The notes under the pieces are model-generated. The model did no database searches, was not told the DNA's origin, and was given only the letters and a program-made list of their open reading frames with translations. A program made the translations under genes and the position numbers. 64,000 bases of DNA from Escherichia coli (GTDB lineage: Bacteria > Pseudomonadota > Gammaproteobacteria > Enterobacterales > Enterobacteriaceae), in NCBI RefSeq assembly GCF_041248615.1, contig NZ_CP158426.1; one strand, written 5' to 3'. Shown piece by piece: positions 30,480 to 31,712 of this stretch. Numbering within the stretch: position 1 is the stretch's first letter; each line of letters starts with the position of its first letter.

Positions 30480-31712
30480 TGAAGTGATCAACTAAAACTG
30501 GCCACGGCTTTAGAGTTTTTCCAGTATCGGTTTTCCGATTCGTTTGAGGGTAACCCACCATTATAGTCATGCGGCCTTAACGAACTGTAATACTCGACGA
30601 TATAGTCTGTAATCGCATGAGCAGCTTCGCTAAAGTTTGTATAACCAGTCACTGGCACCCACTCGTTTTTCAGACTTCTGAAGAAGCGTTCCATCGGGCT
30701 GTTGTCCCAACAGTTGCCTCGTAGGCCCATACTCTGCCTGATCCGGCAACGCCACAGTAACTGCCTGCTTGTATAGTGGCTACCCTGGTCACTGTGGACC
30801 ACACTTCGGCTGGTTTACCGCGAGCTTCCCACGCCATTTCCAGCGCTTTGATGGTCAGCCTGCTGTCCGGCGAGAATGACATTGCCCAGCCCACCGGTTT
30901 CCTTGCGAACAGATCGAGAACAACTGCCAGGTAAGCCCAACGCTTGCCTGTCCAGATATATGTCACATCACCGCACCTGGTTAGGTTCTGTCACTGTAAA
31001 CTGTCGCTCAAGGCGATTCGGGATAACGATGTGTTCATGACCACCACGTTTATACCGGTGGGTAGGCTGCTGACAACTCACCAGCCCCAGTTCTTTCATG
31101 AGCCTGCCGGCAAGCCAGCGTCCCATTCTGAAGCCTCGCATGGTTGCGATAATCGCGAAGCTTCTTGCGCCAGCAGAGCCATGGCTGATGTTATGCAGTT
31201 CCAGAACCTGACTACGTAACACAGCTCGCCTGCCATCTGGCTTTTTGGGGCTTTTTTCCCAGTATTTGTAGCTGCTTCGATGAACCCCGAACACGTGGCA
31301 GAGTGTGACCACAGGATACTGCGCTCTGAGTTTCCCGATTAACGAGAACTGTTCAGGGAGTCTGACATCAAGAGCGCGGTAGCCTTTTTTAATATGTCGT
31401 TTTCCATTTCAATGCGTTGTAGCTTTTTCTTCAGCTCACGTATTTCAATTTGTTCCGGGGTTATAGGGGAGGCTTTAGGTATTTTCCCTGTCGTTCATCC
31501 CGCAACTGCTTTACCCATCGCGTCATGGTAGAAAGGCCCACATCCATAGCACTGGCCGCAGCTGCAACGGTGTAGTTCTGATCAAGGACCAGTTGAGCGA
31601 ATTCGCGTTTAAACTCTGCACTGAAATTTCTTTTTTTCATTGAGGCACCTGTAATGTTCTGAGGTGAGCATATCACCTCTGTTCAGGTGGCCAAATTTAC
31701 TGTGCCACTACA
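30480..31712 (-). mobile_element. IS3-family (IS911-like) insertion sequence, degenerate
   Basis: Terminal sequences tgaagtgatcaactaaaactggcc (30480) and ggccaaatttactgtgccactaca (31689..31712); orfA fragment 31461..31676 ([18 protein letters not shown]...[20 protein letters not shown]); orfB split into three frames (30968..31312, 30670..30966, 30488..30802). Confidence 0.75.

Follow-up and report, generated by a model that had tools for sequence, protein, structure and literature searches.

The IS3-family element found on the minus strand at positions 30480-31712 of the window, that is, of the whole 64,000-nucleotide stretch of Escherichia coli DNA analysed here, is very probably a dead copy of IS911 type, which travels as a passenger of an integrating conjugative element (ICE), inserted in a cargo gene of the latter and was killed by four small deletions. 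An earlier note on this DNA had described a degenerate IS3-family, IS911-like element in this position, and alignment to intact relatives returns exactly the same coordinates together with the four deletions. The kind is an already known one: decayed IS3-family copies are routine in genomic islands, and RefSeq already flags this pseudogene, labelling 30488-31640 as 'IS3 family transposase, frameshifted'. When intact, an element of this type would express OrfA and, through a -1 ribosomal frameshift at an A AAA AAG motif, the DDE transposase OrfAB, and would move by a copy-out/paste-in mechanism through a circular intermediate. The present copy would have inserted in a cargo gene of hypothetical product, close to the distal end of a conjugative element that integrates at tRNA-Asn genes, and then lost its coding capacity by deletion of 1 bp in orfA and of 5, 1 and 9 bp in orfB. 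Following these events neither a proper OrfA, now devoid of its leucine zipper, nor OrfAB can be made any longer, so that the copy cannot transpose on its own and is now passively inherited within the ICE. Accordingly with this picture, we infer that the element has no present function.

Both ends of the element are present over its 1233 bp, and the whole sits 349 bp inside the distal end of the ICE. The tip of the left inverted repeat (IRL), TGTAGTGG, reaches 31712 and that of the right one (IRR), TGAAGTGATC, starts from 30480. The IRR carries two substitutions near its tip in comparison with the ...GACCACTACA of the relatives, and the two repeats match at 22 of 36 positions, being therefore imperfect TG...CA inverted repeats of the sort that characterizes the IS3 family. 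The relatives taken as reference are the copies of strains EH09-18-41, EC50 and E. coli 536, all intact, 1249 bp long and annotated by RefSeq with a programmed frameshift. When the four deletions are conceptually filled in, a stop-free OrfAB of 389 aa is obtained, as in these three relatives; the repaired element thereby displays the family arrangement of an orfA followed by a partly overlapping orfB in the -1 frame, with the programmed frameshift motif. The repaired protein scores 365 bits on NF033516, the NCBIfam model of the IS3 family transposase (cut-off 160), and the Pfam domains HTH_Tnp_1, HTH_21, rve and rve_3 are detected on the separate pieces, which corresponds to the DDE (rve) transposase with an N-terminal HTH typical of the family. 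Moreover, in a megablast search with the element as query, 4599 of 5426 E. coli genomes gave matches annotated as IS3-family transposase with E=0, so that the resemblance to the IS3 family is not due to chance. An Rfam scan of 29800-32500 at E<=1 gave no match.

The loss of coding capacity can be followed base by base. Compared with the intact relatives, the element shows exactly four deletions, whose sizes sum to the 16 bp that separate 1249 from 1233 bp (Table 1), and it contains no substitution giving rise to a stop codon in the same alignment. The open reading frame of orfA is truncated, as the earlier note had observed, and specifies 52 native residues, comprising the HTH, and 7 out-of-frame residues before a stop, for a total of 59 aa instead of the 100 aa of intact relatives. 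In the case of orfB, the description of a gene broken into three frames stands as far as the number of pieces is concerned; the pieces, however, occupy two frames and not three, because the 5-bp and the 1-bp deletions cancel each other and bring the first and the third piece into one frame, while all three frames are used only if orfA is counted too. As orfA is frameshifted by one deletion and orfB by two, the copy lacks the uninterrupted orfA and orfAB that an autonomous IS possesses. Short direct repeats (GGTG, GGCAG) flank both the 5-bp and the 9-bp deletion, a context typical of replication slippage and not of base-calling error. Finally, the dN/dS ratio is 0.19 against the closest intact copy and 0.08-0.13 among intact copies; this value, combined with the complete absence of nonsense substitutions, indicates that most of the divergence is older than the inactivation, which would be fairly recent.

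Table 1. Coordinates, in the window, of the element, its parts and its immediate surroundings
Feature	Position	Strand	Remarks
att remnant, last 16 nt of tRNA-Asn (CCAGTCAGAGGAGCCA)	30115..30130	-	exact match to the 3' end of the window's asnV
Island start	30131
Conserved 80-bp island terminus	30131..30210	.	common to an asn-tRNA island with unrelated cargo
Scrap A, left end of a second IS3-family element (IRL tip TGACCC..., first ~18 orfA codons, frameshifted)	30282..30414	+	cut off after 133 bp
Gene X, 14 bp directly upstream of the insertion point	30466..30479	+	BLAST and MAFFT through the junction; moderate confidence
Right inverted repeat (IRR), outer tip ...GATCACTTCA-3' on the element strand	30480..30515	-
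orfB piece 3, C-terminal rve and rve_3	30491..30802	-	Pfam rve_3 E=2.6e-10; contains the in-frame 9-bp deletion near 30766
orfB piece 2, N-terminal part of the rve/DDE core	30673..30966	-	Pfam rve E=5.5e-11; other frame; ended by the 1-bp deletion near 30802
9-bp deletion, in frame	near 30766		orfB
1-bp deletion	near 30802		orfB
orfB piece 1, HTH_21 region	30971..31312	-	ended by the 5-bp deletion near 30978
5-bp deletion	near 30978		orfB
A AAA AAG -1 programmed frameshift motif, intact	31384..31390	-	motif and position as in relatives annotated 'programmed frameshift'
Truncated orfA	31461..31640	-	ATG at 31640; Pfam HTH_Tnp_1 E=3.5e-9; shift from the 1-bp deletion near 31486
1-bp deletion	near 31486		orfA
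Left inverted repeat (IRL), 5'-TGTAGTGGCACAG...	31677..31712	-	tip same as in 3 intact relatives
Gene X remnant, residues ~20-140 of ~430 aa	31713..32071	+	decayed, cut at 32071
Scrap B, left end of a third IS3-family element (IRL tip TGAATCGCCACGGG..., first ~28 orfA codons)	32072..32254	-	cut off after 183 bp

IS911 encodes an OrfA of 100 aa and an OrfAB obtained by -1 frameshifting, has inverted repeats of 36 bp and forms a circle in which the ends are separated by a spacer of 3-4 bp (PMC2909936). With the IS911 of Shigella and E. coli the present element shares the length of about 1.25 kb, the TG...CA inverted repeats, the -1-frame orfB, the DDE (rve) core, the A AAA AAG motif and, in its intact relatives, the 100-aa OrfA endowed with an HTH; moreover, the N-terminus of its OrfA is nearly identical to that of IS911-type copies. 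Differences are seen in the tip of the inverted repeat, which is TGTAGTGG in the present lineage, in the nucleotide identity of about 86% and, for this copy in particular, in the four inactivating deletions and in the lack of a target duplication. Specifically, ungapped identity amounts to 94.8% with the intact copy of EH09-18-41, to 91.6% with that of EC50 and to 86.1% with the IS911-type copy of E. coli 536, and identity with the annotated IS911A of K-12 is 86.2% over 749 bp. In ISfinder, copies with more than about 95% nucleotide identity are regarded as the same IS; measured on the K-12 and E. coli 536 copies, which are proxies and not the ISfinder reference, the element falls short of being IS911 itself. 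Closer relatives are found on plasmids, with an identity of 95.6% to the copies of ENNIH3 and A-F18 (both 'Enterobacteriaceae bacterium'; the ENNIH3 copy has decayed too, but differently) and of about 94% to copies of Citrobacter, Enterobacter and Raoultella. This unnamed element, which is also the one of EH09-18-41, is 94-96% identical to the window copy over the full length and has the same inverted repeat tips, the same 1249-bp frame plan and the same frameshift site, and on this sequence evidence the two most likely belong to one IS lineage; copies of this type, that of EH09-18-41 for example, differ from the window copy in that they are intact, carry a programmed frameshift in their annotation and have 3-bp duplications at their flanks. 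The alignment to IS911 and IS3-family relatives suggested in the earlier note thus returns an IS911-like element, 86% identical to IS911-type copies and 94-96% identical to plasmid copies; judging from these identities, it is IS911-like loosely and in plan only, and is to be placed in a sister lineage that is frequent on plasmids of Citrobacter and Enterobacter. A parallel is offered by the IS911A remnant of K-12 (insN/insO, in the cryptic prophage CP4-6), likewise a decayed IS911-type copy fossilised in an integrated mobile element; the K-12 copy, however, is split by IS30 and truncated, whereas the copy described here has kept both ends and suffered small deletions only.

The window is identical to positions 2051672-2115671 of the chromosome of E. 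coli NRZ14408 (NZ_LT599825.1) and comprises, in this order, ldtA, asnV, nac, cbl, asnU, yeeO, asnW, a small degraded island, yeeN, amn, shiA, a GT9 gene and a yeeJ-like adhesin gene, frameshifted, whose end falls at about 29800-29877. Beyond this gene lies the 16-nt tRNA-Asn end that precedes the island (Table 1), so that the element does stand beside an att remnant and inside the island boundary, as previously noted. The flanks of NRZ14408 on the yeeJ side and of strain YF-1 on the ldtA side diverge immediately outside the 16-nt repeat, which is a tRNA-Asn end displaced by integration of the ICE. From its first base the ICE runs for about 51-51.7 kb, past the end of the window (2081802-2133602 of the record), up to a tyrosine integrase gene that adjoins an intact tRNA-Asn gene and is followed by mtfA. 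RefSeq annotates a VirB-type T4SS, a coupling protein and MobC within it; consequently an integrase next to tRNA-Asn, a repeat of the tRNA 3' end and T4SS and mobilisation genes are all in place, as is proper of a tRNA-Asn-integrating ICE. In the window the ICE lies between yeeJ and asnT-mtfA, that is, in asnT, whereas YF-1 has this ICE, with an identical integrase (WP_172408808.1) and 99.88% identity over 13.7 kb, between ldtA and asnV-nac; in strain 2018-06-4CC the IS-bearing end of the ICE adjoins ldtA as in YF-1. As the same dead IS is found in asnT in NRZ14408 and in asnV in YF-1, the IS was dead before the ICE last moved. Of the four asn tRNA genes, which are identical, this ICE uses two or more.

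The gene that received the element, here called gene X, could be recognized by joining the two flanks without the IS and searching them against plasmids, where one match runs across the junction (NZ_CP024236). Gene X belongs to a family with at least 120 homologues that is spread throughout the Enterobacterales (Yersinia, Salmonella, Klebsiella, Serratia, Citrobacter), with homologues of 428-431 aa; it is intact in Acerihabitans arboris, as an ORF of 428 aa (9700-10986, minus strand, of the extracted locus), and in Klebsiella (9001-10296 of the extracted locus) it is located among conjugative-transfer genes. Where the window reads TAGGATCAG-AAAC, then the IS, then GTACCACTTGGTCTGG, both NZ_CP024236 and A. 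arboris read CAGGATCGGGAAAC GCT GTACCACTTGGTCTGG; in other words, the bases that touch the IS are neighbours in the two uninterrupted homologues, apart from the 3 bp GCT missing in the window. Homology extends for 359 bp on the right and for about 14 bp on the left (12 matches in 16 aligned columns, a gap column included). Since the flanks are adjacent in two homologues, the comparison argues for a simple insertion of the IS into gene X and against a large deletion at this point, and we regard such an insertion as likely. The site carries no direct target duplication, which in the IS3 family measures 3 and sometimes 4 bp, with TAC on the IRL side and GTT on the IRR side, whereas the intact relatives show duplications of CCC, TTT and GTG; given this and the absence of GCT, either the insertion was atypical or its junctions were altered later, and with so short a left homology a breakpoint at the left end is conceivable. 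A pattern search of genome contigs for the exact empty site of the window lineage gave a single match, the Acerihabitans homologue itself, and the empty-site patterns had 0 matches in metagenomes.

What is left of gene X downstream of the element aligns without gaps to the NZ_CP024236 homologue at 81% DNA identity, with mismatches that show no bias for the third codon position, and reaches at most 71% amino-acid identity to the 120 homologues compared; on both grounds it is a pseudogene. RefSeq places here a 'hypothetical protein' (WP_172408779.1, 31747-32127, plus strand), whose first ~108 codons are gene X remnant and whose tail runs antisense through the IS scrap from 32072; it is a chimera, probably an artefact of annotation. 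In Acerihabitans, gene X adjoins a gene for a 1238-aa protein (5763-9479, plus strand), likewise without annotation; Pfam and PADLOC searches on gene X and on this neighbour gave no match, apart from a weak TPR.

Alternatively, the IS could be the scar of an IS-mediated deletion or replacement, in which case one of its flanks would not be original and distal cargo would have been lost at the element, much as the earlier note had supposed. We consider this unlikely, yet it draws on several observations: the missing target-site duplication, the shortness of the left-flank homology to gene X and the state of the surroundings. In particular, the 2.2 kb between the att remnant and the defence operon (first gene from 32357) bears the traces of no fewer than three IS insertions and of two or more truncating events, and besides the dead IS and the truncated gene X contains two truncated left ends of IS3-family elements. 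The first of these, scrap A, is 86-88% identical to IS3 family transposase regions in about 470 E. coli genomes (E=1e-36). The second, scrap B, shares 91% identity with IS3-family copies that many E. coli carry next to the GT9 (yeeL-region) gene, and 81% with ISEc24-family annotations; its homology stops exactly at the IS tip at 32254, which faces the defence operon, and its interior is met at 32072 by the gene X remnant. The interval is, in short, a rearranged IS scrapyard. Moreover, the defence module is 92% identical to one that occupies the distal end of another asnT island, a small one carried by five genomes (FDAARGOS_1337, 2273-PO3 and three others), and in FDAARGOS_1337 and 2273-PO3 an intact, different IS3-family element stands directly upstream of the module, while the att remnant and part or most of yeeJ are gone. 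Islands of this type show that IS-mediated deletion does occur at the hotspot, in another lineage and by another IS. Against a deletion scar at the dead IS, however, stand the 14 bp on its left and the 359 bp on its right, which align to adjacent positions of gene X in two independent homologues with only GCT missing, as well as the position of the visible truncations, which coincide with the scraps, at 30414 and 32072, and not with the ends of the dead IS. The supposition that the IS marks lost or replaced distal cargo is consequently not supported for the dead IS and holds for its neighbourhood, with its truncated gene and its scraps; likewise, the comparison with related islands which the earlier note had envisaged brought to light a deletion by another IS in FDAARGOS_1337 and 2273-PO3, and no breakpoint at the dead IS was demonstrated by it. 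An undisturbed interval between att and operon was found in none of the E. coli complete genomes, plasmids, species-representative genomes and metagenomes searched, and the 5' flank of the defence operon had no match among plasmids.

Some further features of this neighbourhood deserve a mention. The two scraps derive from IS3-family elements that are mutually unrelated. The defence module (32273-~38590) consists of an MBL-fold/ComEC-like gene, two ABC-three-component genes and the gene of an AAA/SMC ATPase of ~1045 aa; its homology with the FDAARGOS_1337-type islands begins ~85 bp upstream of the first gene and ends ~210 bp past the last one, beyond a terminator-like hairpin, and in 2018-06-4CC its second gene is split by ISApl1. 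The ~1.1 kb that follow, up to a DUF554/UbiX/UbiD cluster (38590-39697), contain no annotated gene and have no similarity to the islands of FDAARGOS_1337 type. A composite transposon was considered and rejected, as the window holds no second copy of the dead IS or of either scrap and the border of the module at ~38590 is devoid of IS scraps. A weaker reading is that IS3-family elements may repeatedly settle within about 100 bp upstream of the ABC-three-component operon, thereby aiding its moves between asn-tRNA islands.

The peculiar junctions of the element may be the natural footprint of the so-called targeted pathway of IS911-type elements, whose marks here would be the lack of duplication, the loss of 3 bp and a near match to the IS tip. 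In this pathway, described so far mainly in plasmid assays, one IS end is joined beside an end-like sequence and the host resolves the branched intermediate, which, if true, would explain both the missing duplication and the 3-bp loss. Specifically, the empty site at the insertion point, CTGTACCACT, agrees with the IRL tip CTGTGCCACT, read in the same direction, at 9 of 10 bases, and only about 1% of shuffled targets match so well near the site. In addition, targeted insertion of IS911 has a precedent in the literature, where it requires RecG (PMC7986276). The 10-mer test is, however, a post hoc one, a 14-mer comparison of inverted repeat and target is not significant, and a later micro-deletion in a decaying pseudogene would be an equally simple cause of the lost bases; for these reasons the targeted pathway appears a rather improbable origin of the junctions.

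As to the present status of the copy, it is conceivable that the element, although non-autonomous, can still be mobilised, or that it serves as the source of a truncated OrfA with a regulatory role. The tips of the inverted repeats, the promoter region, the start of orfA and the HTH-coding part are in fact preserved, and megablast counted matches of the query at 7 places in the NRZ14408 chromosome, the present copy included. Nevertheless, the tip region of the IRR has suffered its two substitutions, the multimerisation region is missing from the truncated OrfA, the window contains no second copy of the same IS type and the copy has been kept at one site in three strains; moreover, the transposase of IS911 acts preferentially in cis. 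A residual activity of either kind is hence very doubtful.

The inactivating deletions, for their part, recur in other isolates. The element with the same flanks is present at 99.9% (megablast) in three further records from two further strains, namely 2018-06-4CC, in two assemblies, and YF-1. The four deletions were compared base by base in YF-1, an independent assembly that differs from the window inside the IS by one SNP (30727) and by no indel, and through megablast identity in 2018-06-4CC, in which the IS is recovered at 99.9% as a single piece covering the full query. That the IS might be intact and active, with frameshifts due to assembly errors, is suggested by the nature of two of the four lesions, which lack a single base as in the commonest error of long reads, and by the fully open repaired frame, but is next to impossible when all four deletions recur in a strain from another country, when both further strains carry the ICE end beside ldtA and not yeeJ, and when the two longer deletions have a slippage-like context; sequencing error is accordingly very unlikely, and the intact orfAB that correction might have restored according to the earlier note does not appear.

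Taken alone, a dead IS is of little weight, and its use is that of a marker of the ICE lineage. The four deletions shared between an ICE in asnV (YF-1) and one in asnT imply that the ICE was still integrating after the death of the IS, and the marker ties together isolates of different provenance, that is, 2018-06-4CC (Viet Nam according to its record), YF-1 (China) and NRZ14408 (whose record gives no country). In addition, the stretch from the att repeat to the defence operon, with its scraps and its truncated gene, stands out as a rearrangement-prone cargo zone, and annotation at the end of the island should be read with care, as exemplified by the chimeric 'hypothetical protein' mentioned above.

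Other observations concern the setting of the ICE. Its first 80 bp (30131-30210) are ~90% conserved beside yeeJ in an island of strain W21 that has a CHAT-domain protein as cargo, with complete divergence past 30210, and 30131-~30209 is also matched by the top-listed among 3349 matching E. coli genomes; this terminus looks like a terminal arm shared by a family of asn-tRNA elements. The yeeJ-like inverse-autotransporter adhesin gene (21837-29802, minus strand) is annotated as frameshifted, its longest ORF being of 1702 aa (24769-29877), and is truncated by IS elements in related strains. A second degraded island, at 5435-~15500 directly after asnW, contains a frameshifted tyrosine integrase, an N-terminal integrase fragment, small HTH genes, an RHS core protein and a TPR protein, and is similar, in its front half, to the backbone of the FDAARGOS_1337 small asnT island. 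Finally, the cargo of the ICE includes an integrase fragment (45517-45918), an extra paralogue of hchA (glyoxalase III; 49491-50342) and an intact IS3-family element with a programmed frameshift (50515-51743) that has no DNA similarity to the dead IS, which suggests that the cargo region of the ICE is itself a mosaic.
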